DNA from: a virus
Virus record (IMG/VR): IMGVR_UViG_3300030109_003951
Span: 1-64,000 of that record
Strand: one strand, 5' to 3'
DNA: 64,000 bases
Part shown: in pieces, positions 3,982 through 28,991 of the stretch
How the letters are laid out: each line of letters opens with the position of its first letter
Numbering within the stretch: position 1 is the first letter of the stretch
Position numbers and translations under genes: made by a program
Notes under the pieces: generated by a model
Seen by the model: only the letters and a program-made list of their open reading frames with translations
Database searches by the model: none
What the model was told of the DNA's origin: nothing

Positions 3982-4365
3982 ATGTGGCAAGAAATCCTCA
4001 AGAAGAAAAAAGATGCCTGTTATCATAAGGTAAGAAGTCGTTACAAGAAATGGCCTTCTGCTTATGCTAGTGGCGCATTAGTTCAATGTCGAAAAGTTGG
4101 TGCGGCTAATTGGGGAGAATCTGAAAAGAAATCTGAAATTGAAAAGGGTAAAATAAAAGATACTCTTTATAGATGGTTTAAAAGGAGAGGCGGTAAAGAA
4201 ACTAAAGATGGTAAAACACAATCTGGATGGATTGCTTGTGGAACATGTGATGATAAAAACGGCCCTAAACCATGTGGAAGAGAAGATGCTGATAAAGGAA
4301 GAAAAAGAAGATGTAGGCCAACTTGTGCAGCATGTAAAACTTACAAAAGGAGGAGAGGCACATGA
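3982..4365 (+). CDS. Highly basic Cys-containing two-domain protein with leader (MWQEILK)
   Basis: DACYHKV...WPSAYASGALVQCRK; second domain RWFK...CGTC...PCGR...CRPTCAAC. Confidence 0.75.
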   Translation: MWQEILKKKKDACYHKVRSRYKKWPSAYASGALVQCRKVGAANWGESEKKSEIEKGKIKDTLYRWFKRRGGKETKDGKTQSGWIACGTCDDKNGPKPCGREDADKGRKRRCRPTCAACKTYKRRRGT

Positions 4366-4715
4366 GTTGGTTTGATGTTCTGAAAAAAAAGAAAGAAAGC
4401 CCAAGGCAGAAGGCTACAGAAAGAGCAAAAAAGAAAGGACTCAAAGGGGTAAATAAACCACAGGGATTAAAAAAAGACCCAGAAAAATCTCATCATGTTA
4501 TGGCTTTTGAAAATAATAAAGCAAAATATATGAAATTTGGCCAAAAAGGAGTAAAAACTAACCAAACTGCTGGACAAAGAGAGGCTTTCAAGGCTCGACA
4601 TGCTAAGAATATCAAGCGTGGAAAGATGTCTCGTGCTTATTGGGCGGATAAAGTAAAATGGAGTCCAAGTAAAACTAAAGAAAAGAAAAATAAAAATTGG
4701 AGAAAGGGTTCATAA
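4362..4715 (+). CDS. Highly basic protein with leader (MSWFDVLK), probably nucleic-acid binding
   Basis: KFGQKG...AFKARH...AYWA..VKW; very Lys/Arg-rich. Confidence 0.75.
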   Translation: MSWFDVLKKKKESPRQKATERAKKKGLKGVNKPQGLKKDPEKSHHVMAFENNKAKYMKFGQKGVKTNQTAGQREAFKARHAKNIKRGKMSRAYWADKVKWSPSKTKEKKNKNWRKGS

Positions 4716-5101
4716 TGTGGTTTGATTTGTTAAAAAGCATTAGTTATTCTGCTATTGTTCTTGATGACCCGTCCAAAAAAAAATTATTACCACTTGTTCC
4801 AAAGGGTTGGAAACCATACGCTCACCACATGACTATTAAACTCGGCCCATTAAAAGAAGATTCACAGTATAAAGTTGGTGATAAAGTATCAATGAATATT
4901 ACTGATGTTGGTATGGATGATAGAGCAATGGCTGTTAAAGTAGATGCTAAAAGAGATGACAGTAGAGGATTCCCTCATGTTACTGTTGCAACTAGTCCCG
5001 ATGGTGGAAAACCATTTCATTCTAATCAAATACCAGAAGAAAATTTTAAACCTTTTAGTGGCACCTTAACTGGGGTAGTAGAAGAAGTCCCCAACAGGTG
5101 A
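4715..5101 (+). CDS. 2H phosphoesterase (2',3'-cyclic phosphodiesterase-like) with leader (MWFDLLK)
   Basis: Two HxT motifs (HHMTI, PHVTV); ATG at 4715 overlaps the upstream TAA. Confidence 0.8.
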   Translation: MWFDLLKSISYSAIVLDDPSKKKLLPLVPKGWKPYAHHMTIKLGPLKEDSQYKVGDKVSMNITDVGMDDRAMAVKVDAKRDDSRGFPHVTVATSPDGGKPFHSNQIPEENFKPFSGTLTGVVEEVPNR

Positions 5102-5105
5102 TATT

Positions 5106-5609
5106 ATGAGTTGGATGGACATTCTTAAAGCAATTAACAAAATTGTTATTATTGATTTTGACCAAACACTATTTTATACTCCTACTCCAGAAGAAGGTAA
5201 AAAAAAATATCAAGAAGTTACTGGTGAGGAATATCCCCACATTGGTTGGTGGAGTAAACCAGAAAGTTTAGATACAGATATTTTTGATATTCCAGTCAAT
5301 AAAGAAATACTTAGCAAGTATAGAGAGTGTGAAAGTGATTCCACTTGCATGACCGTTTTGTGTACGGGTAGAGTTCCAAAAGTAGAAAAGGAAGTTAAGG
5401 CTTTATTTAAAGAACATGGCATTAATTTTGACAGAGAATATTTTGCTAAACTGCAAACCTTGAGACATAAATTAAAAACTTTTGAAGATTTATACCGAGA
5501 ATATCCAAACGCACAAATTACTGCTTATGATGATAGAGATGACCATTTACCCGAATTCCAAAAGTGGGCGGAAGATAAAGACAATGTAGACATTGTGCAT
5601 GTGAAGTGA
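5106..5609 (+). CDS. HAD-superfamily phosphatase (RNA-repair/PNKP-like) with leader (MSWMDILK)
   Basis: Motif I DFDQTLF, motif II CTGR, motif III K, motif IV YDDRDDH. Confidence 0.85.
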   Translation: MSWMDILKAINKIVIIDFDQTLFYTPTPEEGKKKYQEVTGEEYPHIGWWSKPESLDTDIFDIPVNKEILSKYRECESDSTCMTVLCTGRVPKVEKEVKALFKEHGINFDREYFAKLQTLRHKLKTFEDLYREYPNAQITAYDDRDDHLPEFQKWAEDKDNVDIVHVK

Positions 5610-5613
5610 TATT

Positions 5614-6855
5614 ATGAGTTGGATGGATATTCTCAAAGTTTCGTTAGATATTCTCACTGATGAGTTGCGTAGAGACATCAAATCAAAAGGTGGTAAAATT
5701 TACCAGATTGGTGGTGCAGTTCGAGATGAGTTTTTAGGTAAAGTGTCTAAAGATTTAGATTTGATAATTGCAGGAATAGACATTGACGATTTGCAAAAAA
5801 TTCTAAATCAACATGGTAAGGTAAATTTAGTCGGTAAAAGTTTTGGTGTGTTGAAGTTTAATCCTTTTGGTCAAGAAGGAGAACCAGTAGATATTGTTGT
5901 TCCTAGAATAGAAGTTAGCACAGGAGAAGGTCACAAAGATTTCGAGGTCAGATTAGGTAAAGACATCACGTTAGAAGAAGAACAGTTGCGTAGAGATTTT
6001 TGGATGAATGCAATCGCCAAAGATATTGAAACTGGAGAAATTATCGACATTGGTGGAAAAGGCCAACTCGATATAAAAAATAAACAGATTTCTGTAATCA
6101 ATCCAAAAGCATTTGAGGATGACCCGTTAAGAATGTTAAGAGCAGTACAATTCGCATCTAGATTTAATTTTAAAATAGAAAACGAAACCATGAAAGAAAT
6201 AAAGAAAAACGCTGCAAAAATTAAGACGGTTTCCAATGACAGGTATCAAGAAGAGTTTAGAAAAATGTTCGAGAAGTCTAGTAAGCCAACTGTAGGTGTT
6301 AAACTTTTGATAGAAACAGGGTTAATGAATCATATATTTAGTAAAGGGGAAGTTAATCCTTTGATGGATAAATTAAGTAAAGATGCCTTTCCAACTTTTT
6401 TAGCATTATTTGGTGAAGGGTCAAGTGGCTCAGAAATACAAAGTGTAATGAAGTTGTCTAACAAAGATGCCAACATCGTTCAAGCAGTTATGGATTTCCA
6501 AAAAATAAATTTAGATGATTTAAATGTGGTTAAATTTTTATCTAAAGTCAAGGATAAGAAAGATGTTATTCGCAATATTGATGCTTTGCAAAAAGCCAAA
6601 GGACAAACAACATTAAGTGAGCAATTAAAATCAATGAAAGGAAAACCAACAAGTCTCAAAGAATTAGCAGTTACAGGTAAGGATTTGTTAGATGAGGGAA
6701 TCAGTGGAAGAAAAATTGGTGAGATTTTGAATTATTTGTTAGAATTAGCAGTCAAAACTGGTAAAAATGATAAAGAGTTTTTACTTAGCAGGGCTAAGTC
6801 GGAGTTCAATGAAGAACTATGGAAAAGCATATTAAGGAGAAATACTCGTTGGTGA
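5614..6855 (+). CDS. cca: Class II (bacterial-type) tRNA nucleotidyltransferase / CCA-adding enzyme without HD domain, with leader (MSWMDILK)
   Basis: GGAVRD..DLD, RRDF..NA, EDDPLRMLRAVQFASRF, RxE flexible loop, C-terminal GKDL...GRKIG. Confidence 0.88.
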   Translation: MSWMDILKVSLDILTDELRRDIKSKGGKIYQIGGAVRDEFLGKVSKDLDLIIAGIDIDDLQKILNQHGKVNLVGKSFGVLKFNPFGQEGEPVDIVVPRIEVSTGEGHKDFEVRLGKDITLEEEQLRRDFWMNAIAKDIETGEIIDIGGKGQLDIKNKQISVINPKAFEDDPLRMLRAVQFASRFNFKIENETMKEIKKNAAKIKTVSNDRYQEEFRKMFEKSSKPTVGVKLLIETGLMNHIFSKGEVNPLMDKLSKDAFPTFLALFGEGSSGSEIQSVMKLSNKDANIVQAVMDFQKINLDDLNVVKFLSKVKDKKDVIRNIDALQKAKGQTTLSEQLKSMKGKPTSLKELAVTGKDLLDEGISGRKIGEILNYLLELAVKTGKNDKEFLLSRAKSEFNEELWKSILRRNTRW

Positions 6856-6860
6856 TACAA

Positions 6861-7517
6861 ATGGTAACTAGAAGAAGATGTAAAGTCTGTCAACATGAAG
6901 ACAGGACACAAATAGAAGAGATGGTCAATTCAATGACTAAAACTTGTGATGATTTAGATATAGAATTCGATTGGGCAAGTGGTACAACAGCCCGTCACAT
7001 GAGAAACCATACTCAAGGATATGATGATGCCTCTAATCCTCAATGTGCTGTTTGTACTCATCCAGAAAGGGCTAAAATAGAAACAGACATCACAGAAGGT
7101 ACGATTCCTGCTAGTGAAGTAGCAGCACAATTGGGAACAACAGATGCTCAAATTAGAAAACATATGAGGTCACATTTACAACCTCTTGTGCAAAAATCTG
7201 CTGCAACTCAAATTGCTCGTAGAGAAATTGATGAGATAGATATGCTTAGTGCAAACTTACAAAGATTAGATGGTAAATTAGATGAGTTATTTGACATGCC
7301 TACTCACACTACGAGAGAATTAGATTCACTGACTAAACTCGCAAAAGAGATTCGTGAGTCTTTGAAATACCTTATGGAGTTCAAGGGCAAACTTATTCAC
7401 CGAAGGCAGGACACCATCATCGTAGCGCAGATGCAGATTGTCCAAGAAGTGTTGGCGCAAAATCATCCTCAAGTGTGGTTAGACGTTAAAGAAAAGATGA
7501 AGGAGAAGTTACAGTGA
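6861..7517 (+). CDS. Tandem CxxC...HxxxH zinc-finger/HTH protein with coiled coil; candidate terminase small subunit
   Basis: CKVCQH...HMRNH and CAVCTH...HMRSH; lies upstream of TerL; function inferred from position. Confidence 0.5.
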   Translation: MVTRRRCKVCQHEDRTQIEEMVNSMTKTCDDLDIEFDWASGTTARHMRNHTQGYDDASNPQCAVCTHPERAKIETDITEGTIPASEVAAQLGTTDAQIRKHMRSHLQPLVQKSAATQIARREIDEIDMLSANLQRLDGKLDELFDMPTHTTRELDSLTKLAKEIRESLKYLMEFKGKLIHRRQDTIIVAQMQIVQEVLAQNHPQVWLDVKEKMKEKLQ

Positions 7518-8946: not shown

Positions 8947-10871
8947 TTAAACAAGAAATAATTACAGATGCTTTAACTAAAATAACTAATCAGAAAAAAA
9001 CAATTAAAGAAGTTGTTCCTAATCCAACTTTAGACGGTAAGAAAAATATAACTGTTGCATTAAGAAAGCAGTTAAAAAAAATAATTACTGATGCTCTATC
9101 AAAAGCCCTTGTTAATTATTCCGATTCAAATACATTAAAATGGACAAAAGAATGGAATCCCCACTCTACAAAAAAAGGTTTGACATCAGACGATATAGAA
9201 TCTGTTGAAGTAGAAATCAAAGGAGTTCCAAACATTACAGTTGGAAACTTAATTCATGCAAACGATAACATTCAAAACAAATTAGAAAAATTCATTGCTG
9301 AGTTTGAAAAGCCAACAGAAGAAACAAAGAAAACAATAGCCAAAGATTCTTTCCCAGAAAAAGTTGGTGTTTTAAAATGGCGTTCTGCAAATTCTAGAAA
9401 GAAAGTTTATGATTATTGGGAAGGCATATCCAAAATGTTTGACGATTTAGAATCCCAAACAAGAAAATGGGCAGAAACATTAACTGATAAAAATAAAGGT
9501 AATGTTGTTGATAGTTTAGAAAACTTAGAAAACTATGTCATAAAAATAAATGATGTTCAACAAATACCAGTTGGGACACACTTAGATATTTTTGCAGATA
9601 TGTTAGAGGAAATAAAAGCCTCTCTTTTATCAGATGATGGAGTTGTAAAGTTCACTGAAAATAAAATATTAGCAGCAAAAACAGGAGATGCAGCAGACGA
9701 CATGGATGATGTTGACCCTCTTTTAGCAGTGTCCATTTCAAAAGGTTTGACTAAGTTAGGATATAGTAAAGAGACTCTATTAAGAGAAAAAGAAAACTTG
9801 TTAGAGCAAAGCAAAAAACTAGATGAAAAGCCAAGAACAATGTTTGAAAAAATGTTAGATAGTCTAATTGATGAAGCAGAGGCAATAGATGCGCCTTTCT
9901 ATCTACCCGATACAGAGTTTACCTCAACTGATGAGCAAGCAAGACAAAGGAGAGAAGACAATCACAAAAAATATCTTGAAATGATTGCGCTCGCAGCAGA
10001 CGAAAAAGAAATCGACCCTGTGCTACTAACCACACTCAAAAAATATTATGGCCCTATATCAAAAACTAATATGAATCTAATGGGAAGTCCCCCTAAGTTT
10101 ATGGAGTCCTCTACTTGGGATAACATCATGTCTTTAGATAGTGAGTCCACTTTAGATTATGATGATACTTTAGTTTCTGCAAAACAAATGGAGGCTTTAG
10201 CAGAATTCATAGGTAAATATCGTAAAGGTGCATTGGAAGTGTATGATGATAACACTAAAGATTTAGCCTTCAAAGTTTTTGGAGTTTTAGATGAATTATT
10301 TAAAGGTGAACATCGCAAAGCAAATCAAGAAACTCTTGGTTGGTTCTTAAATAAAAACAACCCTCCTGCTGGAGAAAGATTCATGGGTGAATCCATCGAA
10401 GAACTTGCTGATAGATACGATGAACAAAAAGAATCATCTTATCCATTATTAGATATGGAAGGTTTAATCAATAGTCCTAAATTTATTAGTTTATTTGAAC
10501 CAACAGACCCAGATGCAAAATTAGAAAATGTAAAACCTACAGTAAAGAAAAAATTATTTGAGCAAGTTAAAAAATTAAACAACAATTACAAAAAATTAGC
10601 AAAGAAGAAAAAAGACATTAATTCACAAATTTTAGAAACTCACGATGTTATTAGGAAATCTTTTGGTAAACCAATTTATTATGGTATGAATGATTTGACA
10701 GACATAGAAGATACCAGTTATGTTTTGAAAAGATTATCCTCAAAAGGGTATGATTTGACTGCTGTAGAATTAACTGCTATAGTTGATTCGATAAGTTCTC
10801 TTGACAGAATTGCTAAGTCTTTTGGAGTAAATGAAGAAATAGTATATCTGGCAAAGGGGCTATGTAGATGA
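8943..10871 (+). CDS. Large hypothetical helical protein, possible C-terminal HTH
   Basis: 642-aa ORF coupled to TerL. Confidence 0.75.
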   Translation: MIKQEIITDALTKITNQKKTIKEVVPNPTLDGKKNITVALRKQLKKIITDALSKALVNYSDSNTLKWTKEWNPHSTKKGLTSDDIESVEVEIKGVPNITVGNLIHANDNIQNKLEKFIAEFEKPTEETKKTIAKDSFPEKVGVLKWRSANSRKKVYDYWEGISKMFDDLESQTRKWAETLTDKNKGNVVDSLENLENYVIKINDVQQIPVGTHLDIFADMLEEIKASLLSDDGVVKFTENKILAAKTGDAADDMDDVDPLLAVSISKGLTKLGYSKETLLREKENLLEQSKKLDEKPRTMFEKMLDSLIDEAEAIDAPFYLPDTEFTSTDEQARQRREDNHKKYLEMIALAADEKEIDPVLLTTLKKYYGPISKTNMNLMGSPPKFMESSTWDNIMSLDSESTLDYDDTLVSAKQMEALAEFIGKYRKGALEVYDDNTKDLAFKVFGVLDELFKGEHRKANQETLGWFLNKNNPPAGERFMGESIEELADRYDEQKESSYPLLDMEGLINSPKFISLFEPTDPDAKLENVKPTVKKKLFEQVKKLNNNYKKLAKKKKDINSQILETHDVIRKSFGKPIYYGMNDLTDIEDTSYVLKRLSSKGYDLTAVELTAIVDSISSLDRIAKSFGVNEEIVYLAKGLCR

Positions 10872-12304
10872 CAGAAATAGGAATGTTAGATTTTGAAACT
10901 AAAATGGATATGGAATTATCCAAAACATCTTTTCCTTATTTTTTTCAGAATGTATTAGGTTGGGAATTTACTCATTTCCATCAAGAGTGGCTAGAACTTA
11001 TGGAATCAACAGACCGTACTGTTATCATTTGTAGTCGTGACCACGGTAAATCTGTATTTATGCATTCATGGGTAGTTTGGAATTTATGTTTTCAACCACC
11101 ACCATTTCAAATGTTATACATTTCATCTAACCATAAACAGACTATGGTTCACATGAGAGATATTGACAAGATGTTTAATCATAAATCGTTAGCACAATTT
11201 AGACCAAGTAGAGGTTGGGCCATAGGAAACATTACACTTACTAATGGTAATTCAATTCTTGAGCGTTCAGTAGGCTCTCAGATTCGTGGTCTTCATCCTC
11301 AAGAGATAATTATTGACGACCCTTTGAAAGAGTTCTCTATGTCTGCAATTAACAAAGTTACTGATTGGTTTTTCGGAGATATGATACCAACACTTCACCA
11401 CACTGCTAGTCTTAGAATGATTGGCACTCCTTTTTCTTACACTGATATTTTTACACAGTTAGAAGAGAACGAAGCCTACACTGTTAGAAAATATCCTTGT
11501 TTCAACCAACTCAATGAACCACTTTGGCCAGAGAGATGGGATTATGATGCCCTAATGCAAAGAAAGACAGAAGTTGGCTCATTAAAATTCACAAGAGAAT
11601 ATATGTGTATTCCTATCTCAACTGGAACATCACTGTTCAATGTAGAACACGTTCAACAATGTATTAGTAAAGAAGACATTCTTAGAATGAGAAATAGAGA
11701 AGGTTACAAATATTTTGTAGGTGTTGACCCTGCTATATCAACAGATGGTGACTACAATGTTATTGTCGTATTAGAAGTTGATGAAGAAAAAAATAAACGA
11801 GTGGTGTTTGTAGATAGACAAAAGAATGTTCAGTTTAGGGAAAACATAAACAAACTAAAATTAGTTGGTCAATTATTTCAACCAGAAGTAATCTTATTTG
11901 AAACTAATACTTTTGCTAAATCATTTACACAAGAATTGCGTAATGAAACCGATTTGAATGTTAGAGATTTCAATACAACTAGAAAAAAGAAACAAGAGAT
12001 AATTCTTAACTTACAAATGAATATAGAGAATCACAAAATAGTTTTACCTAAAGGAAATGAAGAGTCCAAAAGAATGACTGATTTAATTGTAGATGAACTT
12101 AGTATGTTCAGTATATTAGATAATGGTAGGTTTGCGGGAGTTGGGGCGCATGATGATTTAGTGATGGGATTGGCCCTCGCTAACTCTGCAACCCACACTT
12201 TGAACGAATCTTTTGTTTTATTAGATGATATTGATATATTTGATTCTCCCGTCACTACACAGGTGGGACAAATGGGAGGTGGTGTATTTGGCCTTAATAT
12301 CTAA
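10868..12304 (+). CDS. terL: Terminase large subunit
   Basis: Walker A SRDHGKS, Walker B IIIDD, motif III IGTP, RNase H-like nuclease VGVDPA...HDDLVMGLALA. Confidence 0.93.
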   Translation: MTEIGMLDFETKMDMELSKTSFPYFFQNVLGWEFTHFHQEWLELMESTDRTVIICSRDHGKSVFMHSWVVWNLCFQPPPFQMLYISSNHKQTMVHMRDIDKMFNHKSLAQFRPSRGWAIGNITLTNGNSILERSVGSQIRGLHPQEIIIDDPLKEFSMSAINKVTDWFFGDMIPTLHHTASLRMIGTPFSYTDIFTQLEENEAYTVRKYPCFNQLNEPLWPERWDYDALMQRKTEVGSLKFTREYMCIPISTGTSLFNVEHVQQCISKEDILRMRNREGYKYFVGVDPAISTDGDYNVIVVLEVDEEKNKRVVFVDRQKNVQFRENINKLKLVGQLFQPEVILFETNTFAKSFTQELRNETDLNVRDFNTTRKKKQEIILNLQMNIENHKIVLPKGNEESKRMTDLIVDELSMFSILDNGRFAGVGAHDDLVMGLALANSATHTLNESFVLLDDIDIFDSPVTTQVGQMGGGVFGLNI

Positions 12305-13628
12305 GCAACCGATGAGTTCTGAAGAGTTACGACAAGGTGCTGTAGCGTTAGATGAACTTGCTAGTGCCACACAAGATTTTGAGGAGCAATATTTGAAATG
12401 GATTTCTTCTCAACCCCTTGATGATGAATACAATGTTATCAAAAATGCTGCTAAAGAATTCAATCTTAATTTATCTCAAGCAAGAGAACAAGTTGAAAAG
12501 TTTCCTTCTGAATATAAGATAGAAGGGGAAGGGATAGTTGATGTGGTAAAAAGATTGAGAGATTATAGAACTACACTTAAAGGTGACATTAAAAAAGATT
12601 TTACTAAATCTATTGTTAATGTTATTAATGGATATTCTTCACATTTAGACGATTGTATAAAATCTATTTATTGGTTGAGTGATTATCAAAAACCACTTAA
12701 GTCAATGTCTTTTAAAGAAAGCGATTTAAGAAAAATATACGAAATAAAAGATTATTCTACAAGAGCGCAACTAGTAGATATTTTATGTAAATATTGGGAA
12801 GCAGATTTAGAACGTAAAAGTTTACAAGGCACAGAATATTTCAAATCAGAACATTCACTAACCAAATGTAAAAAAGAATTTAGGGGTTTTATGAAATCAT
12901 TACCTAATAGGTATGATTGGACTGATAAATTGAATACCCACATTTTGAAATGTGTTTCTGATGACCAAGGAATTACTTGTAGGTCAATCATGGATAAGAT
13001 GGATTCGTCTTTACAAAAAAGGAGCAGCCCACAAATTATTGCAAAACATGCTAAGAAGATTGGCGTAACAATAGTTGAAGAACAATATTACAAATTAAAT
13101 GACACATTCAAAAAAGACATCAGTGCATATACTGCGGCTTTCATAGATTCAGATGGTTATATCACTTTAGATAAAAATCTAAATCCTAGAGTTGGTCTTA
13201 TTGCTACTGGTGATAGGGGCAAAGCATTCATGATAGAAATGCACAAAGCATTAGGTAATGGTAAATTACATCTTGACCAAAAGTCACCACAAAATACTAG
13301 AGCAGTAAACAGACTTAATTTTTATTCTCAAGATGATGTCCATAAAGTGTTAACTCAATGTCGCCCACATTTTAGAATGAAAGGGCCACAAGCAGATTTA
13401 TTATTAGAAATAGTTAGAATTAAAAAATATCATAAAAAACAAGATTGGGCTAAAGACCGTATGCAAGAAATATACAAATTAATGAAATGGTATAATCATT
13501 CAGATAACAAAAGTTATGATTGGTTAAAATATAATGTTGATATTTTTGCTATTGATAAATTAGAAGGTAATTGCAAAATGAATCTGATGGATGAATTAGA
13601 TTCAATTAGTAAAGGAGAGGAAGAATAA
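12225..13628 (+). CDS. Protein with long helical N-terminus and C-terminal LAGLIDADG domain
   Basis: AYTAAFIDSDGYI plus a typical LAGLIDADG beta/alpha tail (..RPHFRMK..QA.L); real start probably 12288 (TTG) or 12312. Confidence 0.75.
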   Translation: MILIYLILPSLHRWDKWEVVYLALISKQPMSSEELRQGAVALDELASATQDFEEQYLKWISSQPLDDEYNVIKNAAKEFNLNLSQAREQVEKFPSEYKIEGEGIVDVVKRLRDYRTTLKGDIKKDFTKSIVNVINGYSSHLDDCIKSIYWLSDYQKPLKSMSFKESDLRKIYEIKDYSTRAQLVDILCKYWEADLERKSLQGTEYFKSEHSLTKCKKEFRGFMKSLPNRYDWTDKLNTHILKCVSDDQGITCRSIMDKMDSSLQKRSSPQIIAKHAKKIGVTIVEEQYYKLNDTFKKDISAYTAAFIDSDGYITLDKNLNPRVGLIATGDRGKAFMIEMHKALGNGKLHLDQKSPQNTRAVNRLNFYSQDDVHKVLTQCRPHFRMKGPQADLLLEIVRIKKYHKKQDWAKDRMQEIYKLMKWYNHSDNKSYDWLKYNVDIFAIDKLEGNCKMNLMDELDSISKGEEE

Positions 13629-15229
13629 TGGCAGAAGGAAATATATTTAGTAGGTTGTTTAGAAAAAGAACACCTATACCGTCAGATAGAAAAGTTTTCA
13701 ATATTGGAATACAAGAAAGAGACAACTCTTTTTTCTTGTCTATACCATTATTGTATCATATTGCAAATTCTTCTGTAATTTGTAGAACTTGTACTACTCA
13801 ATTAAAAAATGAAGTATTTAGGAGAGGTTTTACTTTTGCTAAAAAATTCACTATGAAGTGTAGACAGTGTGATAAAGAATTTGAACAACAAGTAGGAGAA
13901 TGTGCTAAATGTGGTTCTATGGAGTTTGATGTTCCAGACGAAGAACAATTGAAATATGCTAAGAAATTGTTAACAGGTTATGTCAATGGTGCAAATCAAA
14001 TGTTTGTTGATGTGCTAAGAGAGTTAGAAGATGACTTAAATATCATAGATGATGCATATATTGTTTTAGTCAAAGAGTATTTTTGTGATGCTAAAGGAAA
14101 TATCAAACTACATAAGATAAAAGAAGTCTTTAGAGGCGACCCTGCATCTATGACTATCTATGCAGATGAAGTTGGTGAAAGAGGACAAAAAGGATTTATT
14201 GATATTCAAAATAGAGATTTTATTTCTGAAAATGCATATGATACTCATCCCGAATCTGGTAATGTTTTACAACCAGTGCATTACGTTAATAGGGCTACTG
14301 GGGAAGAAGAATATTTCATTGAAGGTGAGGTTTTACATTTTAGTAAATATGCCCCTTCGAGATTATATGGTTCAAGTCCAGTTATGACATTGTTTAGCCA
14401 TTTGACTACATTGATAGCAATGGAAAATTATGTCAACGCATCTTATACTAAATCTAGAATGCCTAGAGGTATTCTCGCAGTTCAAACTAGAAACATGGAT
14501 TCCATGAGGCAGTTTTGGAGAAGTGTCAAAGAAAAGATGGAAAGTGACCCACACTTTATCCCAGTCATGGGAATTGAAGCAGAAGGTAGAGGTGCTGTGG
14601 AATGGGTCAAATTTATGGACAGTCTAAAAGAAATGGATTATGTTGCAGTTAAAGAAGATTTAAGAGATAGGGTTGCTGCTTTCTATGGGGTTAGTAAAAT
14701 ATTCATGGCTGACAATACTGCTAGTGGTGGATTAAATAATGAAGGTATGCAAATTCTTGTTACTAATCGTGCAGTAGAAATGGCACAGAATGTTTACAAT
14801 CATTATGTGTTCCCTTGGTTAATGGAAGAGTTCGGGGTTACTGATTGGGAATTGGTGTTGCCACCGTCAGAAGAAGAAGATGAGATTGCCTCTTTAAGAA
14901 AAAGAGAAATTGAAATCGGTCTTGCTTCACAAATGCAAGGTTTAGGGTTTGAAGTTGATTTAGATGATGAGAACAATTTTGTTTACAGTAAACCTCCACC
15001 AGCACCAGAAATGAAGATGGAAGATGAGGTGATGTTAGGTGATACTGCTATGGGTGGGCCTCCTATGGAAGAAGTTCCTATGGAGGAACAAGTTGAAGAA
15101 GTTGAAGAAACTCCGACAGATACACCCGATGTCCGTATGAGCGTAGGGCCACCACAAAGATTCAGTGGTTTACCAGAAGAAGCAGCGAACAATAATGTCG
15201 ATAGAAGAACAGAGAGGCGAGTAGGATGA
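13628..15229 (+). CDS. Portal protein with zinc-ribbon insertion
   Basis: Position after TerL; EVLHF...LYGSSP, PRGIL, RVAAFYGV portal-like motifs; CRQC...CAKC. Confidence 0.85.
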   Translation: MAEGNIFSRLFRKRTPIPSDRKVFNIGIQERDNSFFLSIPLLYHIANSSVICRTCTTQLKNEVFRRGFTFAKKFTMKCRQCDKEFEQQVGECAKCGSMEFDVPDEEQLKYAKKLLTGYVNGANQMFVDVLRELEDDLNIIDDAYIVLVKEYFCDAKGNIKLHKIKEVFRGDPASMTIYADEVGERGQKGFIDIQNRDFISENAYDTHPESGNVLQPVHYVNRATGEEEYFIEGEVLHFSKYAPSRLYGSSPVMTLFSHLTTLIAMENYVNASYTKSRMPRGILAVQTRNMDSMRQFWRSVKEKMESDPHFIPVMGIEAEGRGAVEWVKFMDSLKEMDYVAVKEDLRDRVAAFYGVSKIFMADNTASGGLNNEGMQILVTNRAVEMAQNVYNHYVFPWLMEEFGVTDWELVLPPSEEEDEIASLRKREIEIGLASQMQGLGFEVDLDDENNFVYSKPPPAPEMKMEDEVMLGDTAMGGPPMEEVPMEEQVEEVEETPTDTPDVRMSVGPPQRFSGLPEEAANNNVDRRTERRVG

Positions 15230-16476: not shown

Positions 16477-16710
16477 ATGAGTGAAGAAAATGAAGTATTA
16501 GATATTTTAAAACAATTAGTTGATAGAATTAAAACATTAGAAAAACACGTTTACAATGAAGATAACGTGTTAATGAAATCTGGTTGGGTGCAAACAAAGT
16601 CACCTTCACCATCAGTAGATAATGATAGAACAGGAATGCCTAAGAATATTGGGGATAAATCTTGGGGCGAATTACATGATATAATTTCAAAAATGGAGGG
16701 TCGACAATGA
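16477..16710 (+). CDS. Mini scaffold-like protein (coiled coil plus KSWGELH C-terminal helix)
   Basis: C-terminus resembles the protease-scaffold C-terminus KMSWDELHQVI. Confidence 0.6.
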   Translation: MSEENEVLDILKQLVDRIKTLEKHVYNEDNVLMKSGWVQTKSPSPSVDNDRTGMPKNIGDKSWGELHDIISKMEGRQ

Positions 16711-17075: not shown

Positions 17076-19538
17076 GTGCCTCAATTACTTTTCCAAAAAG
17101 AAAGTGACCCTGCTAGACTAGTTCGCACTTTATTTGAAAAGGTCAGAATTGGTTACTTACTAGGAAAAGATGACCCTAAACATTATGCCGAGCGTTGGAC
17201 ATCTGTTATAGATGAACTAAAAGACTTACATGACGATACCAGCAATTTCGCAGCATTAATTAAAAGAACATTGAATGAAAAAGATTTGTTCTCAGACGAG
17301 GTTAAAAATCCAGAGTCACACGAAGCGGGTAGAATTTTTGCAGCAATTAAGAAACTGCGCTATTCTAAAATTACTAAAGACCCATTTATCGAAGAATTCG
17401 GGGAAGAAGTAGTTGATGCTCTTTTATCAGATGAACATGTTTATGTCAAATTTTTGCACTGGGCATTAAGAAACGATGATGATGTTTTAGAGTCAGAACT
17501 ATATGAGAATCAAGATTTAGACCCCGATGAAATCACTGGTGGTTTTGCAGGACTAGATTTAAAAGAAAAAGAAATCATTCCTTTTATCATAGAACATTAT
17601 GGTGACGATAAAGATTTATCAAGATTAGAATCTAAATATAAAGGGGCAATTAGTACTCTAAATAGAATTATAGACAATAAGGAACAAATGAAAAATCTAG
17701 TAGATTTAGATTTACAAAAAGCAGAAAAGTCATTATCTTTTATTGTTCCTAACAAACCAATGTATCGTATTTTTGATATTGAAGATTTAAAAGAATTAAG
17801 AGGTTTCACTGGTAAATGGGTAGTTCAAGAAAAGTATGATGGGATGAGAATACAAATCCACAAGTCAGAAGGTAAGGTCAAAATATATTCTTTTAATAAA
17901 AAAGACATCACAGATAAATGTCCAGAACAAGTTAAAATGATAAGTGAGAAAAAATTTGCAGATTGTATTTTAGATGCAGAATTGATGTTATTTGATGGTG
18001 ACGAACCATTACATCGAGCAGAAGTTGTTGCTAGAATTTTCAAAGATAAAAAATCAGATACAATTTTGAGAGCGCATGTATTTGACATCATGCAATATGA
18101 TGATAGAGATTTAACAGATTCACCATTAGAAGAAAGAATAAAAATATTATTCCAAAACTTTAGTCAACATTCAGATATTGAATTAGCATTCCCATCTAAA
18201 AAAGATACAAGGATTGCAGATTCAATGAAAGACATAGAAGTATATTCTAAAGAGATATTTAAAATTCCAACAGCAGAGGGTGTAGTGTTAAAAGATTTAA
18301 CCTCAACTTATTTCTTAGCCAATAGGAAAAATCCTAAATGGGTTAAATGGAAAAAGTTTGTCGACATTGATGTAGTAGTATTAGATATGAAGAAAACCAA
18401 ATCAGATTTATTTTCATATACTATTGGTGTGGGGCCAGTAGAAGAAGGTGTGGAAGTAAATGGTGTAAAATATCTAAGTGTTGGCAAAGCACTTAACACT
18501 AAAATTAGAGTAGACATTGGGGATATTATTAGAGTCAAGGTTGATGAAGTCAGACAAACACCAGATGGTTTTGCTTTACAATCTGCTAAAGTTATAGAAG
18601 TTCCCGAAGTTGAACAACCAGACAAAGTAGTAACTTTAGAATTTTTAGCAAAAGATACTAAAAAATCTTTGAACTATGATATTGAAGCATTTACTAAAGG
18701 ATATGAAATAACTGACCATGTTCATGGTCATGCTACCATTATTGCTAAATCAGATATGGATGGCTTTACAGTATATGGTTTTCAAGAAGATAACCTCATG
18801 GCTAAAAACGCTTTAGCAAATATGGAAGTTTGGAGAGAACAATTAGGTAAAGCACTTGATGAAGATAGGTCAGTTTTAGAAACAGCAATCATAAATGAAA
18901 TTAAAAGAACTAATAAACCTATGGATATTAATTCAATTGTAAGGTTTTTCAATAGAGATAAAGAACTAAAGAGAATATACGAAAGTGTATTCAACAGTAA
19001 TAAAAATGAATTGTTTAGAAGTCTTAAGAATAAATCAAAAGACCACCTCACATATGAAAAACAAAAATTTAATTTAAACATGGAAGTAGGAGAACCACTA
19101 AGAAAAGAATATTCTACTCCAGAAGAATATCGTAAAGGCACATTCAAAGTTTACATTACTGAAAATGAAAATATTCAAATTGTTATGGATTTAAATGATG
19201 AAAAGATTTCATGGATTATTAAGTTAGATAGTGAAGATGACATATTCAACTTATTCGGCAAATCTAAAAAATTTATGGCGCAAGTTGCAACAACAATGAC
19301 CAAAGGAAAGGTTATTGATTCTGGAGAAGTAGAATTAGGAGTTCAAAGACATGGTTATCATGAATACATGTTAAATGGAAATAAATTTGATACTCGTTTA
19401 CATTTCAGAGTTGTTCCTATTGATGATAAAGAGAACTGGGTAGCATTCACTAGTGTTAAACCAGAGAAGGTTGATTCTAATACTGATGATGGCATATGGG
19501 ATATACGGCAAGATAAGTATAATAAATTAACCCTTTAA
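17076..19538 (+). CDS. Multidomain ATP-dependent ligase in the head module
   Basis: Motif I EKYDG, III ILDAE, IIIa VFDIM, IV EGVVLK, V WVKWK, OB domain; about 220-aa N-terminal and 290-aa C-terminal extensions. Confidence 0.85.
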   Translation: MPQLLFQKESDPARLVRTLFEKVRIGYLLGKDDPKHYAERWTSVIDELKDLHDDTSNFAALIKRTLNEKDLFSDEVKNPESHEAGRIFAAIKKLRYSKITKDPFIEEFGEEVVDALLSDEHVYVKFLHWALRNDDDVLESELYENQDLDPDEITGGFAGLDLKEKEIIPFIIEHYGDDKDLSRLESKYKGAISTLNRIIDNKEQMKNLVDLDLQKAEKSLSFIVPNKPMYRIFDIEDLKELRGFTGKWVVQEKYDGMRIQIHKSEGKVKIYSFNKKDITDKCPEQVKMISEKKFADCILDAELMLFDGDEPLHRAEVVARIFKDKKSDTILRAHVFDIMQYDDRDLTDSPLEERIKILFQNFSQHSDIELAFPSKKDTRIADSMKDIEVYSKEIFKIPTAEGVVLKDLTSTYFLANRKNPKWVKWKKFVDIDVVVLDMKKTKSDLFSYTIGVGPVEEGVEVNGVKYLSVGKALNTKIRVDIGDIIRVKVDEVRQTPDGFALQSAKVIEVPEVEQPDKVVTLEFLAKDTKKSLNYDIEAFTKGYEITDHVHGHATIIAKSDMDGFTVYGFQEDNLMAKNALANMEVWREQLGKALDEDRSVLETAIINEIKRTNKPMDINSIVRFFNRDKELKRIYESVFNSNKNELFRSLKNKSKDHLTYEKQKFNLNMEVGEPLRKEYSTPEEYRKGTFKVYITENENIQIVMDLNDEKISWIIKLDSEDDIFNLFGKSKKFMAQVATTMTKGKVIDSGEVELGVQRHGYHEYMLNGNKFDTRLHFRVVPIDDKENWVAFTSVKPEKVDSNTDDGIWDIRQDKYNKLTL

Positions 19539-19575: not shown

Positions 19576-20823
19576 GTGTTAGGAGGAGTTGTAACAACAA
19601 AATCAAATACGTTTGATATACTGAAGTCACAAGATGATTTAATAATTGCAGGATATGCTTCAATAGAAATGGTAGACAAACAAAATGATTTAATTACACT
19701 CAAAGCGTTGGAGGAAGCAGTACAAAAATTCATGGATAAAAATGAATATAGAAACGTAATGACTAACCATTCAAATGTTCAAGTAGGAGAAGTAGTAAAT
19801 AAATATAGAGATTCAAAAGGACAGATATATAAAACACAAGTAGATGATGTAGGATTTTTTGTAGTAATAAAATTAAGGGATGATATAGAAAAAGCAAAGG
19901 AAGTATCAAGAGACATAAGGCAGGGAACATTAAGGAGTTTTAGTATCGGGGGACAAGCACTAGAAAAAAGAACTGTTAGAGATAAAGAAGTAGGGGAATA
20001 CAACGAAATCAGCAAATTAGAATTACATGAGGTTACAATCTGTGAAAAAGGAATAAATCCAGAAGCAAAATTCGATATACTGAAACAAGATAAAAATAAG
20101 GTGAAAAAAATGAATGAATTAGAAAAAGCACTTGGCGAATTAAATGAACTAGTTAAGAACATGAATTTGTCCAAGGAAGAAGAAGAAGAAAAAGGACATG
20201 GTAGAGACATGGAAATGGGTCACGAAGAAGGCCATGAAGAAGAAAAAATGGGCTATGGTCATGATGAAAAGGCTGATGAAGAAGATGATGTAGAAGACAT
20301 GTCTTACAAGGCTGATGAAGAAGATGACGAAAAGAAAGCAGAAAAAGATGAGGATGATGAAAAGAAAGCATTAGAACTCAACACTTATTCTGAGGCTGGA
20401 GAAGTTGTCTTTGAGAATGGTAGAACAAAAGACCATCCTCAAGAATCAGAATTTAAGATGCAACCTCCTACACTAGATTTGAGTGCTGCTAACTTAGAAA
20501 AAGCATATGAAGCATTTAGAGCAGAAAAATTAGAAGCAATGGCTTATGAGAATCTATCCAAAACATTTGGTGACAGATTTAACTCTGAATTAAAAGCACA
20601 AGATGAAGCAATTGCAAAAGCAAACTACAATGCTAAAGCAGAAGTAGCAGAACTAAGAGAGCAATTTGCATCATTGAAGAAATCATTAACAGAAGAAAAA
20701 CAACAAGTAATTGCAAAACAAGAACAAGTTGTAAGTAATTTAAATATTCCAAGTACTGACGATATTGTAAAAATGAGTTGGGATGAATTACATCAAGTAA
20801 TTGATAATTTGGAGAACAGGTGA
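19576..20823 (+). CDS. HK97-type prohead protease fused to acidic/coiled-coil scaffold
   Basis: IAGYAS..VDKQND, NH, SFSIGG, LHEVTIC...NPEA; immediately upstream of the capsid gene. Confidence 0.9.
   Translation: MLGGVVTTKSNTFDILKSQDDLIIAGYASIEMVDKQNDLITLKALEEAVQKFMDKNEYRNVMTNHSNVQVGEVVNKYRDSKGQIYKTQVDDVGFFVVIKLRDDIEKAKEVSRDIRQGTLRSFSIGGQALEKRTVRDKEVGEYNEISKLELHEVTICEKGINPEAKFDILKQDKNKVKKMNELEKALGELNELVKNMNLSKEEEEEKGHGRDMEMGHEEGHEEEKMGYGHDEKADEEDDVEDMSYKADEEDDEKKAEKDEDDEKKALELNTYSEAGEVVFENGRTKDHPQESEFKMQPPTLDLSAANLEKAYEAFRAEKLEAMAYENLSKTFGDRFNSELKAQDEAIAKANYNAKAEVAELREQFASLKKSLTEEKQQVIAKQEQVVSNLNIPSTDDIVKMSWDELHQVIDNLENR
20110..20823 (+). CDS. Putative nested scaffolding protein from an internal in-frame start
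   Basis: AGGTGA at 20099-20104 then in-frame ATG 20110 (MNELEKA), directly after the protease domain. Confidence 0.6.
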   Translation: MNELEKALGELNELVKNMNLSKEEEEEKGHGRDMEMGHEEGHEEEKMGYGHDEKADEEDDVEDMSYKADEEDDEKKAEKDEDDEKKALELNTYSEAGEVVFENGRTKDHPQESEFKMQPPTLDLSAANLEKAYEAFRAEKLEAMAYENLSKTFGDRFNSELKAQDEAIAKANYNAKAEVAELREQFASLKKSLTEEKQQVIAKQEQVVSNLNIPSTDDIVKMSWDELHQVIDNLENR

Positions 20824-20828
20824 TTAAA

Positions 20829-22262
20829 ATGGTAAGAACAATAAACACAATAAGAGATTTAGAAGCGGCTACATACGGCTTCCAAAACAACTCAATTCTA
20901 AAAGGTACTGGAGTAGTTGGTGCAGCAGGAATTGGTGTAACTGGACACGATGCAGCAATAGGAATAAATGGAACAGCAGCCACAGCAATGACTGATTTAT
21001 ACAATGTAGTATATGGTCAAAAAGTTTGGTCAATGTTGAACCAAGAAATAAATCCACTAGCAATTCTTCCAAAAAGACCGTACACAACAAGCGGTTGGAG
21101 AATTCTAAAAGCAAGACCATTTGGTGGAGCAGATGCGAAATTCGGTTTAGCACATGAATTTTCTGACAACTCTACTGGTGATGCTTTAACAGCAGGTAGA
21201 AGTGGAACACAAGTTGACAGGCCAATGCCAGATGAAATTGGTGGTGTTAGAGAAAATGCAGGAATAGGTGGAGCAGCAGCAGACGGTGATATTACACCAG
21301 TTGCACCAGAATACACAAAACTATTCATGACTCCTAAAACAATTGCTCACATGTTTGAATTCAGTGAATTAGCATCTGAAATGGCAAAGATTGATGATGG
21401 TATCGGTGACTTAAGAGCATTGATTCGTGAAGATATGGGTAAATTCCATGCAGAAGTTCAATCAAAAATGTTAGTAATGCCTCTAGAAGCATATGACTTA
21501 GATGCTGGATTAGCAGCAGGTAGTTCCGCTAGTGGTGCTGCTGCATTTGCAGATATGGAAAGAAACTTAACATCATTAATGAAAATTGTTTCTTCCTCAG
21601 CAGAAGTTCATGAAATGGGTGCGCAAAGTATAGTAGCAGCAAATGATGGTGCTAACAGTGTAGACACAGTTAAACTATATGGTAACACAGATAGAGCAGC
21701 AGACACAGCATTAGGTTCCTCAGTAGGATTTATGGATGCAGAAGTTAACATTGGAGATGGATATGCAGCAGCAGAACAAAGAGTATTAACACTTTCAATC
21801 ATGAATAGTTTAATCCAAAGTTTAAGAACAAATGGAGCAAGTCCAAAAGTTATTATGACTGGATATGATACAATTCAAGCAATTGCTGACTTATTACAAA
21901 GCCAAGAAAGATTCATGGATGCTAAACACATTGTACCAACACATAATGGTGTAAAAGGTGTTGCTGGTGCAGAAGTTGGATTCAGAGTTGCAACATACTA
22001 TGACATCCCACTAATTCCAGCAAAAGACATGCCAAGCACATGCCACTTATCATTATCAACAGGATTAAGTGATATGTTATTCTTAGACACTGACCACTTA
22101 TGGTACTCCGTACTAAAACCAACTCAATACTTTGAAGATGGTATTAATCATGGAAACCCATTCGGCATTGGTAAACTAGGGAATCAAGGAATGTACCGAA
22201 CTATTGGTGAAGTAGGCTGTTCTTTCTTCAAAGGACAAGGTAAAATCACCAACCTAAAGTAA
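20829..22262 (+). CDS. Major capsid protein (HK97 fold inferred)
   Basis: Follows protease-scaffold; about 477 aa; VYGQKVWSMLNQE and YYDIPLIP..D..FLDT segments typical of archaeal tailed-virus capsids; ATG 20829 after AGGTGA. Confidence 0.85.
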   Translation: MVRTINTIRDLEAATYGFQNNSILKGTGVVGAAGIGVTGHDAAIGINGTAATAMTDLYNVVYGQKVWSMLNQEINPLAILPKRPYTTSGWRILKARPFGGADAKFGLAHEFSDNSTGDALTAGRSGTQVDRPMPDEIGGVRENAGIGGAAADGDITPVAPEYTKLFMTPKTIAHMFEFSELASEMAKIDDGIGDLRALIREDMGKFHAEVQSKMLVMPLEAYDLDAGLAAGSSASGAAAFADMERNLTSLMKIVSSSAEVHEMGAQSIVAANDGANSVDTVKLYGNTDRAADTALGSSVGFMDAEVNIGDGYAAAEQRVLTLSIMNSLIQSLRTNGASPKVIMTGYDTIQAIADLLQSQERFMDAKHIVPTHNGVKGVAGAEVGFRVATYYDIPLIPAKDMPSTCHLSLSTGLSDMLFLDTDHLWYSVLKPTQYFEDGINHGNPFGIGKLGNQGMYRTIGEVGCSFFKGQGKITNLK

Positions 22263-28427: not shown

Positions 28428-28991
28428 ATGGATGAAGTGACTTATGTAGTTGAGTTGTTAAAAGGCACTAATATTGCCACTAGTCAATATGGTGGGACTA
28501 ATACATGGGCAGGTTCAATTTCTTCATTGTCTATACCTGCGGCACATCAAGTAACTCCAACAATCATAGACATTCGCAACATGACAAAAAATAAAGGTAG
28601 GGCTTACGATTTATCTACTGCGGCTTCTGGAGAATCTTCTTCTGACCTTATAGTAGTTTTTGAGGATTCTCAAACAATAACACATCCTACAGTAGCCTAT
28701 GATGTTAGGAATGAAACCTACACATTAACATTACATATTCGCACAATACAAGACGATAGGGGGGCAAGTGATGCAAATTTCGCTAGAGATAGATTAGAAA
28801 ATTTGTATAAAATTGTCCGTCATAGACTTGAAGCGAACCGTAAAGGAGCAAAGGTGACAGTTAGTGGTGACTCTAATTCTTTCGACCTTATATATTTAAG
28901 GGGTAGAACGGAGTCGAATGACCGAGCCAAAAGGCTGTTTGGGTACAAAGTTCAGATAGAATTACAAAAGTATGCAGTGGCCTTACCGTAA
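28428..28991 (+). CDS. Putative tail terminator/completion protein
   Basis: Position before the tail tube; size and beta-strand pattern. Confidence 0.55.
   Translation: MDEVTYVVELLKGTNIATSQYGGTNTWAGSISSLSIPAAHQVTPTIIDIRNMTKNKGRAYDLSTAASGESSSDLIVVFEDSQTITHPTVAYDVRNETYTLTLHIRTIQDDRGASDANFARDRLENLYKIVRHRLEANRKGAKVTVSGDSNSFDLIYLRGRTESNDRAKRLFGYKVQIELQKYAVALP

Follow-up and report, generated by a model that had tools for sequence, protein, structure and literature searches.

A predicted RNA 3'-end healing and re-tailing locus in a marine magrovirus, and the short N-terminal leader shared by its three enzymes

Why does a virus in whose genome no tRNA gene is found encode a CCA-type tRNA nucleotidyltransferase, and why next to two enzymes that could heal a damaged RNA end? 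The question is raised by a locus at positions 4715–6855 of the window, by which we mean the whole 64-kb stretch analysed here, the left part of the 86.6-kb single-contig virus record IMGVR_UViG_3300030109_003951. Three adjacent open reading frames (ORFs) on the + strand encode a 2H phosphoesterase of 128 amino acids (aa) that is a predicted RNA 2',3'-cyclic phosphodiesterase (4715–5101), a HAD_SAK_1 phosphatase of 167 aa predicted to remove terminal 2'- or 3'-phosphates (5106–5609), and a class II CCA-type tRNA nucleotidyltransferase of 413 aa that lacks an HD domain (5614–6855). Each intergenic gap in the trio is 4 nucleotides (nt) long, the start of the 2H gene overlaps the stop of the preceding gene (TAATG), and all three products open with a related leader: MWFDLLK on the 2H protein and MSWMDILK on both the HAD and the CCA protein. 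Phage CCA enzymes are usually explained as finishing the phage's own tRNAs. A search of the 86.6-kb record found neither tRNA nor tmRNA genes, and none of the Rfam families was found in the window. Maturation of viral tRNAs is therefore an unlikely purpose, unless the record is incomplete, and host tRNAs whose acceptor ends are clipped during infection are the most likely substrates. We consider it reasonably probable that the trio is a split RNA 3'-end pathway that heals and re-tails host tRNAs, its enzymes probably being loaded into the procapsid by their tags.

In the proposed pathway, the 2H enzyme would open the 2',3'-cyclic phosphate left by a metal-independent RNase, giving a 2'-phosphate and a free 3'-OH, as expected from its relationship to Trl1-CPD and CNPase. 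The HAD_SAK_1 phosphatase would then strip the remaining phosphomonoester, and the HD-less class II nucleotidyltransferase would rebuild whatever part of the CCA is missing, making host tRNAs chargeable again. A host defence or toxin RNase could be responsible for the damage, as could ordinary turnover of the ends. Least certain is the delivery step, in which an 8-residue propeptide, M-S-W-x-D-I-L-K, would allow the enzymes to be loaded into the procapsid, cut, and delivered with the DNA, as are the proteins bearing the capsid targeting sequence (CTS) of phage T4. We infer the activities, the tRNA target, the defence trigger and the virion delivery alike from sequence.

Three predicted enzymes

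The 2H protein matches the Pfam family tRNA_lig_CPD (PF08302) with 35.4 bits against a cut-off of 23 (1.1e-8), over profile positions 135–226 of 250 only. Its domain begins at SISYSA, directly after the leader MWFDLLK, and carries the two motifs H38-M-T40 and H88-V-T90; across 29 homologues, H37, H38, T40 and H88 are invariant, and T90 is conserved in at least 90%. An AlphaFold2 (AF2) model built on the homologue alignment has a predicted local distance difference test (pLDDT) score of 92.7. In the PDB, Foldseek ranks the catalytic domain of CNPase as the best match to this model (TMq 0.62–0.71, probability 1.00); the E-values are modest, starting at 3.7e-3. The cyclic phosphodiesterase (CPD) domain of Candida Trl1, too, has CNPase as its nearest structural relative (PMC7145591). 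Among viral models (BFVD), the best matches are Trl1-like proteins of giant viruses (E 1.9e-6 and 8e-5) that are 765–771 aa long; one bears the name RNA ligase. When the 2H alignment was used as a profile against PDB sequences, no significant match was obtained, and the phage GenBank collection contains no 2H relative. Judged by its motifs and its predicted fold, the product is a member of the 2H superfamily, in the PF08302 (Trl1-CPD/CNPase) clade.

A search among longer proteins retrieved 672 relatives of the 2H protein. Most are fusions of about 310 aa between an AAA_33 kinase and a CPD domain, with 40–50% identity to the window protein over the CPD part and with the layout of the kinase-CPD (KIN-CPD) healing unit of Trl1. 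This family looks like a prokaryotic counterpart of that unit. The family (P0151–P0261) is very large, and its proteins are presumably cellular because some of them lie on contigs of up to 343 kb.

The same two healing enzymes could serve a different purpose, namely to clear small nucleotides such as 2',3'-cyclic nucleoside monophosphates, or the cyclic-oligonucleotide or ring-nuclease products of immune systems in the manner of Acb1, with the CCA enzyme being merely a neighbouring cargo. Both the 2H and the HAD enzyme classes also act on mononucleotides, and the 2H model resembles Acb1, which counters the cyclic-oligonucleotide-based antiphage signalling system CBASS (E 1.6e-3, TMq 0.53). Activities of a 2'-nucleotidase and a phosphatase are ascribed to the HD domain of Escherichia coli Cca in the title of Yakunin et al. 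2004 (cited in PMC6961547), and five metagenomic loci (L118–L122) hold a 2H-HAD pair with no CCA gene in the flanks covered. However, Acb1 ranks below the giant-virus proteins, the best relatives of the 2H protein are RNA-end-healing CPD domains (CNPase and Trl1, the Trl1-like giant-virus proteins, the kinase-CPD fusions), and adjacency or fusion to a CCA gene recurs in at least three virus lineages. We regard a role in small-nucleotide clearance as improbable.

The second gene product matches HAD_SAK_1 (PF10307) with 47.5 bits against a cut-off of 25.6 (2.4e-12). HAD motifs I–IV (D17-x-D19-x-T21, T87, K122 and D142-D143) are invariant in 18 sequences. The protein falls into PHROG 415, annotated as 'polynucleotide kinase' (1.7e-5). 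Its match to Pnkp1 in the PDB is weak and not significant (E 0.23), and a profile search of PDB sequences with the HAD alignment likewise gave no significant match. Relatives in the phage GenBank collection come from huge phages only. The hints that this enzyme acts on the 2'- or 3'-phosphate ends of polynucleotides are indirect: the PHROG 415 match, 2H-HAD fusion proteins at two other loci (L133 and L134), and RNA-related neighbours in other phages. In many viral loci that have HAD_SAK_1 and no CCA gene, the HAD gene lies amid genes for IF3, an RNB-domain exoribonuclease and tRNA-binding proteins. This conserved cluster of translation and RNA genes is seen at L021, L038, L043, L054–L056, L092 and L095; in L056, Pfam identifies IF3 and the RNB-domain exoribonuclease, and in L021 a protein with a tRNA-binding domain, and an SmpB-like N-terminus was noted, by eye only, in the HAD neighbourhood of L043.

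The third product has the Pfam domains of a class II nucleotidyltransferase, namely the PolyA_pol head (PF01743, 59.2 bits), PolyA_pol_RNAbd (PF12627, 54.7 bits) and tRNA_NucTran2_2 (PF13735, 29.5 bits), and matches the tRNA nucleotidyltransferases of phrog_2244 at 3.7e-59. Neither Pfam nor NCBIfam detects an HD domain. The motifs GGAVRD, DLD, RRD and EDDPLR are intact, and G33, G34, V36, R37, D38, D47, D49, R126-R127-D128 and D170...R173 are invariant in the alignment of homologues (A5). The best matches among PDB sequences are the CCA-adding enzymes 7otr and 6ibp (2e-21), which align over the full length with the motifs in register. With head motifs A–E, neck, body and tail all recognisable, the gene product is a class II CCA-type enzyme by sequence, and its CCA specificity is predicted. 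In NCBIfam, the best model is NF009814 (CCA tRNA nucleotidyltransferase), matched over its full length at 128 bits against an equivalog cut-off of 290; by this measure the protein represents a divergent viral lineage below equivalog level. Its closest relatives are enzymes of marine T4-like phages (51–58% identity), and a scan of cellular contigs found no close relative and a single distant match in Bdellovibrionales. Archaea use class I CCA enzymes, and the initial annotation had called this one a class II enzyme of bacterial or phage type; the T4-like relatives, together with the bacterial origin of the best PDB matches, agree with that call.

It is conceivable that the nucleotidyltransferase adds poly(A), poly(C) or mixed tails, marking cleaved RNAs that the 2H and HAD enzymes have cleaned and thus steering their decay. 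Class II CCA enzymes and poly(A) polymerases are not safely separable by sequence, and the PcnB poly(A) polymerase model scores 104 bits, little below the 128 bits of the best CCA model, with no equivalog cut-off being reached. The PcnB match, however, covers the N-terminal part only, whereas the match to CCA enzymes spans the whole protein (positions 14–384 of 396 in NF009814; residues 53–415 with 6ibp and 7otr). The protein also has a tRNA_NucTran2_2 domain and an intact, invariant EDxxR template motif. As no more than a hint, the alignment to a solved CCA-adding enzyme is free of gaps in the loop that links motifs A and B. We consider a tailing enzyme very improbable.

The closest functional parallel to the trio is E. 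coli Cca, a class II enzyme with a C-terminal HD domain (NF008137), in which the HD domain removes the 2',3'-cyclic phosphate before repair (PMC6961547). The predicted overall chemistry is the same: opening of the cyclic phosphate, dephosphorylation and rebuilding of the CCA. The class II head is shared as well, since NF008137 matches the window protein at 118.6 bits over its N-terminal 210 residues (positions 2–208 of 409). Unlike E. coli Cca, the window protein has no HD domain; healing would be done by two unrelated folds, 2H and HAD, encoded by separate genes that are viral and bear N-terminal tags. The parallel to the KIN-CPD part of Trl1 and to CNPase lies in the two HxT motifs and the 2H fold. 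Unlike Trl1, the window 2H protein is a minimal domain of 128 aa with no kinase or ligase partner; its partners are a phosphatase and a CCA enzyme, and the end product should therefore be a clean 3'-OH for tailing and not a 2'-phosphate for ligation. The description from which this analysis started, three adjoining genes with intact catalytic motifs and a leader on each, is confirmed by the ORFs, the Pfam matches and the homologue alignments, and its three enzyme assignments and missing HD domain are upheld by Pfam and NCBIfam. Equally, Pfam and PHROG scans find no RNA ligase or kinase adjoining the trio, a point that had been taken to favour 3'-end repair over anticodon repair.

Recurrence and exchange of the genes

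Contigs of four marine sequencing runs were aligned onto positions 4362–6900 of the window. A single contig from an independent marine study (record 9 of run X3) carries the same trio and spans the whole stretch, and a contig of another independent marine assembly (record 19 of run X6) covers the end of the 2H gene followed by HAD and CCA. In run X9, one contig joins position 5097 to position 5606, so that exactly 508 nt are skipped and the HAD gene is gone, and other contigs of the same run retain the HAD gene and both junctions. The deletion joint lies inside a repeat. A cassette made of a ribosome-binding site, the ATG and the leader occurs on the + strand at 5098–5130, upstream of and into HAD, and again at 5606–5638, upstream of and into CCA. 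The two copies are identical at 31 of 33 nt, and 22 letters at the joint fit either side. Both forms therefore coexist in nature, with breakpoints in the leader repeat: HAD is an accessory cassette, and its presence or absence is polymorphic within one marine sample.

Elsewhere, members of the three families turn up together in varied orders, both in viral and in metagenomic loci. In five close relatives from IMG/VR (L001–L005), the 2H gene lies directly upstream of CCA, with no HAD between them. Metagenome contigs found through the HAD family have either the full 2H-HAD-CCA order (L113–L115) or 2H-HAD (L116–L123 and L130). A quite different, leaderless phage lineage has the order CCA-2H-x-HAD (L132, L135), and at L133 a CCA gene is followed by a 2H-HAD fusion protein in which Pfam recognises both HAD_SAK_1 (1.9e-7) and tRNA_lig_CPD (9.5e-4); the same fusion is found at L134, truncated by the end of the short contig. 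In marine T4-like phages (L006–L015), the CCA enzyme carries an additional C-terminal domain, about 140 aa long and bearing two HxT/S motifs, which in L015 is instead encoded by the next gene; the L007 contig also encodes T4 gp23 and gp21. An hhalign comparison of this domain with the window 2H family is weak (E 0.03) with both HxT motifs in register, its Pfam matches to tRNA_lig_CPD (21.6 against 23 bits) and LigT are sub-threshold, and a profile search of PDB sequences found no match. On its motifs and sub-threshold matches it is probably a 2H domain; its structural model failed.

The CCA and 2H families also appear in further settings. The CCA protein at L135:2-2719, in the leaderless lineage, is part of an ORF of more than 905 aa with an N-terminal GNAT acetyltransferase domain. 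At L137:1099-3990, a 963-aa protein without a Pfam match contains a 2H domain. In some close relatives (L114:102-1538, which is P0146, and P0147–P0150), gene calling places the 2H domain at the C-terminal end of longer ORFs of 298–545 aa, which may reflect real fusion to the gene upstream or miscalled starts. A candidate RNA ligase and kinase beside the 2H gene in L110 and L111 was rejected: Pfam gives a guanylate-kinase-like match for one and nothing for the other, a 735-aa protein.

Because these loci show the families in differing orders and fusions, it can be said that the three families travel together in at least three lineages, as judged from gene content, and that 2H is their constant member, present in nearly every arrangement recovered. 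The 2H gene would thus be the core of the module, with HAD and CCA exchanged by recombination between repeated leader cassettes. Failure of the genes to co-occur elsewhere had been named in the initial annotation as an outcome that would refute it, and the genes do co-occur. That they form a functional unit is likewise borne out, since the trio or pairs of it recur, including a 2H-HAD fusion supported by Pfam and CCA-2H fusions based on motifs.

A number of observations weigh against the proposed repair pathway and its packaging. Besides the Acb1 resemblance, the mononucleotide activities of the two enzyme classes, the CCA-less 2H-HAD pairs and the sub-equivalog and PcnB scores given above, 78 of the 80 viral HAD_SAK_1 loci have no CCA gene nearby. 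A third lineage (L110–L112) has 2H with no CCA within 5 kb, and for the CCA-fused domain of the T4-like phages the failed model reached a pLDDT of just 44.7. To these are added that the cleavage specificity of the S78 protease discussed below is read from motif positions only, and that we know of no RNase clipping tRNA acceptor ends in Poseidoniales, the presumed hosts. The proposal of a complete three-enzyme kit thus stands in part: the trio does recur, and it is not a fixed set, since HAD and CCA vary among relatives and HAD even within one sample.

A shared leader and the maturation protease

Fourteen ORFs of the window start with M-(S/T/A)-W-x-(D/E/N/S)-(I/V/L)-L-K, a frequency far beyond chance; they lie within positions 21–31695 in the late arm, every one on the + strand, and the replication arm has none. 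The codons used for I, L, D, K and S in the leader vary freely among synonyms, so selection acts on the peptide. Untagged homologues begin exactly where the tag ends, MSISYS... against ...LK|SISYS for 2H and MAEINK... against ...LK|AINK for HAD. The first tagged ORF (21–317, 98 aa) matches the winged-helix domain of archaeal MCM with 26.1 bits, a score equal to the Pfam cut-off. Apart from the trio, scans of 7 and a further 4 tagged proteins found no enzyme domain, hence no hidden kinase or ligase among those.

The core of the leader is found again at sites in two head proteins. The major capsid protein (20820–22262) has NSILK|G at residues 24–28, its presumed maturation cut, and the prohead protease (19576–20823), presumably the enzyme that removes the leader, has FDILK|S at residues 13–17 and FDILK|Q at residues 166–170, the latter where the S78 domain ends, ahead of the acidic, scaffold-like half. 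Across the 127 ORFs, the pattern [DENSQ][ILV]LK occurs 28 times, against 11±3 in shuffled sequences; 18 of these 28 occurrences, among them those in the capsid protein and the protease, are located either N-terminally in late ORFs or at the junction within the protease, and eight are scattered in the replication arm. Both protease sites are conserved in five relatives (72% identity) in which the downstream half diverges, and relatives of the capsid protein keep (I/L)LK at the same place amid otherwise changed sequence. The leader core fits what the cleavage motif of a maturation protease would give. A search of the available literature found no report on the cleavage specificity of HK97-type proteases. 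That tagged proteins are virion cargo had first been proposed as a hypothesis; it now gains independent support, because capsid protein and protease share the motif at their predicted cleavage sites, and since the leader core matches these sites, the tagged enzymes are likely procapsid cargo, delivered to the host if the prediction is correct. Three late ORFs without the Trp-containing start (1610–1864, 16477–16710 and 28428–28991) have (D/E)(I/L)LK within their first 21 residues and may be further protease substrates or have miscalled starts. The C-terminus of the CCA protein (6808–6852) is itself leader-like, reading ELWKSILRR..., where relatives in alignment A5 have ELWKSILKK or MSWEDLLWR; it may be a recombination relic inside the leader of the downstream gene, or may act as a second, C-terminal propeptide.

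Other lineages carry other leaders on the same genes. The 2H protein of one lineage starts with MKLLxENWRxYLxE, and at L110:3590-7467, seven consecutive genes, one of them of the same 2H family, start with MKLL(L/F)ENW(R/K)xY..., a third leader type. In the T4-like loci, the CCA protein and many of its neighbours start with MKxFxx[FY][IL]xE; at L017:731-5843 and in L006–L016, many consecutive small genes begin with MKSFKQY(I/L)xE, resembling the layout of the T4 CTS. Short common N-terminal leaders on runs of genes thus look widespread in marine viruses. The T4 CTS is a propeptide of 10–19 aa in which residues 4 and 7 serve targeting and residues 8 and 10 processing, gp21 cutting after L/I-x-E (PMC9026906), and the T4-like leader M-K-x-F-x-x-[FY]-[IL]-x-E fits this published layout and cut. 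The window tag shares with the T4 CTS, as found on internal proteins IPI–III and Alt and processed by gp21 (PMC9026906), that a short N-terminal peptide is borne by many unrelated late proteins and ends in the motif also seen where the capsid protein and the protease are processed. Unlike the T4 CTS, the tag is 7–8 aa long, reads MSWxDILK and ends in Lys and not Glu; the protease is of the S78 HK97 type and not the S77 gp21 type, and the virus is archaeal. The window tag may work like the T4 CTS, and by these differences it is not a member of that system.

The same chemistry might equally serve a housekeeping purpose: enzymes made in the infected cell would keep up the host tRNA pool against CCA loss that is spontaneous or due to turnover, or against collateral damage from virus-induced RNA decay, and the leader would be a signal for processing, stability or expression. 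To our knowledge, no host nuclease causing such damage has been described, and the position of the trio upstream of the terminase gene in the late arm is equally compatible with late cytoplasmic enzymes. E. coli Cca, moreover, is regarded as a maintenance and repair enzyme that deals with end turnover and spontaneous cyclic-phosphate ends (PMC6961547). A cytoplasmic enzyme made late would be of little use for translating earlier genes, however; the leader core matches the N-terminal motifs of capsid protein and protease and the junction of the protease domains, and the homologues in T4-like phages bear a CTS-like tag. We consider cytoplasmic housekeeping unlikely, and prefer repair by enzymes that would arrive in the virion.

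The virus and the meaning of the locus

The gene content of the record is that of a tailed virus with two arms. The + strand arm encodes the terminase (10868–12304), the portal protein (13628–15229), the prohead protease with its Peptidase_S78 match at residues 19–177, the major capsid protein (Pfam SU10_MCP) and a tail tube protein. The – strand arm encodes PolB, RFC, a PD-(D/E)xK nuclease and an ATP-dependent DNA ligase, with a Cpn60_TCP1 chaperonin further on. A second ATP ligase lies inside the head block of the + arm; it is an 820-aa protein (17076–19538) between portal and protease with an ATP-dependent DNA ligase core (dnl1 2.5e-33; RNA_ligase merely 5e-5) and large additional N- and C-terminal parts. 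Searched against the phage collection, the capsid protein finds tailed viruses of archaea and nothing else, and the best matches of PolB are haloviruses. Two ligases, one within the structural block, and a chaperonin are part of the magrovirus plan (PMC5434244). On its structural genes, PolB, RFC, two ATP ligases and chaperonin, the virus is assigned to the magrovirus type, the tailed viruses of Poseidoniales. The magrovirus structural block also has a LAGLIDADG gene; in the window, the ORF at 12225–13628 gave no Pfam match.

Parts of this picture have precedents. Phage CCA enzymes and 2H domains have been described as components of RNA repair or counter-defence. A paper on jumbo phages predicts that phage CCA enzymes restore tRNA ends and, in the passages found, treats 2H and CCA proteins separately (PMC7824862). 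A study of polyvalent proteins, which are believed to be injected, predicts that their 2H domains act on RNA ends with a cyclic phosphate, and the word 'CCA' is absent from the passages found (PMC5512222). In the magrovirus papers searched, 'CCA' does not occur, and 'nucleotidyltransferase' is likewise absent among the matches listed. Already published are thus the phage CCA enzyme as a restorer of tRNA ends and the 2H domain in probably injected polyvalent proteins. New here are the occurrence in an archaeal virus, the encoding of the set by three separate genes of which the HAD cassette is polymorphic, and a tag of another kind, linked to an HK97-type protease.

As a tentative and rather speculative extension, magroviruses may have evolved their own 8-residue load-and-cut tag, working with an HK97-type protease and convergent with the T4 CTS. 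Recombination between tag cassettes would swap the cargo, and a repair kit whose CCA enzyme is 51–58% identical to those of T4-like phages, re-tagged in each lineage, would be injected ready-made into archaeal cells so that translation restarts even where the host has disabled its tRNAs.

Poseidoniales are one of the most abundant archaeal groups of the surface ocean, and we know of no defence in them that attacks tRNA 3' ends. If the proposed function is correct, damage to tRNA 3' ends would matter during their infection. Complete repair of the tRNA acceptor end would then be assembled from three small portable genes and not from one HD-fused enzyme, and bacterial and archaeal viruses would draw on the same repair parts. 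With the tag as a simple rule, the virion cargo of uncultured archaeal viruses could be predicted from sequence, and the natural presence or absence of HAD between the tag repeats illustrates a way in which sets of cargo could be rearranged.

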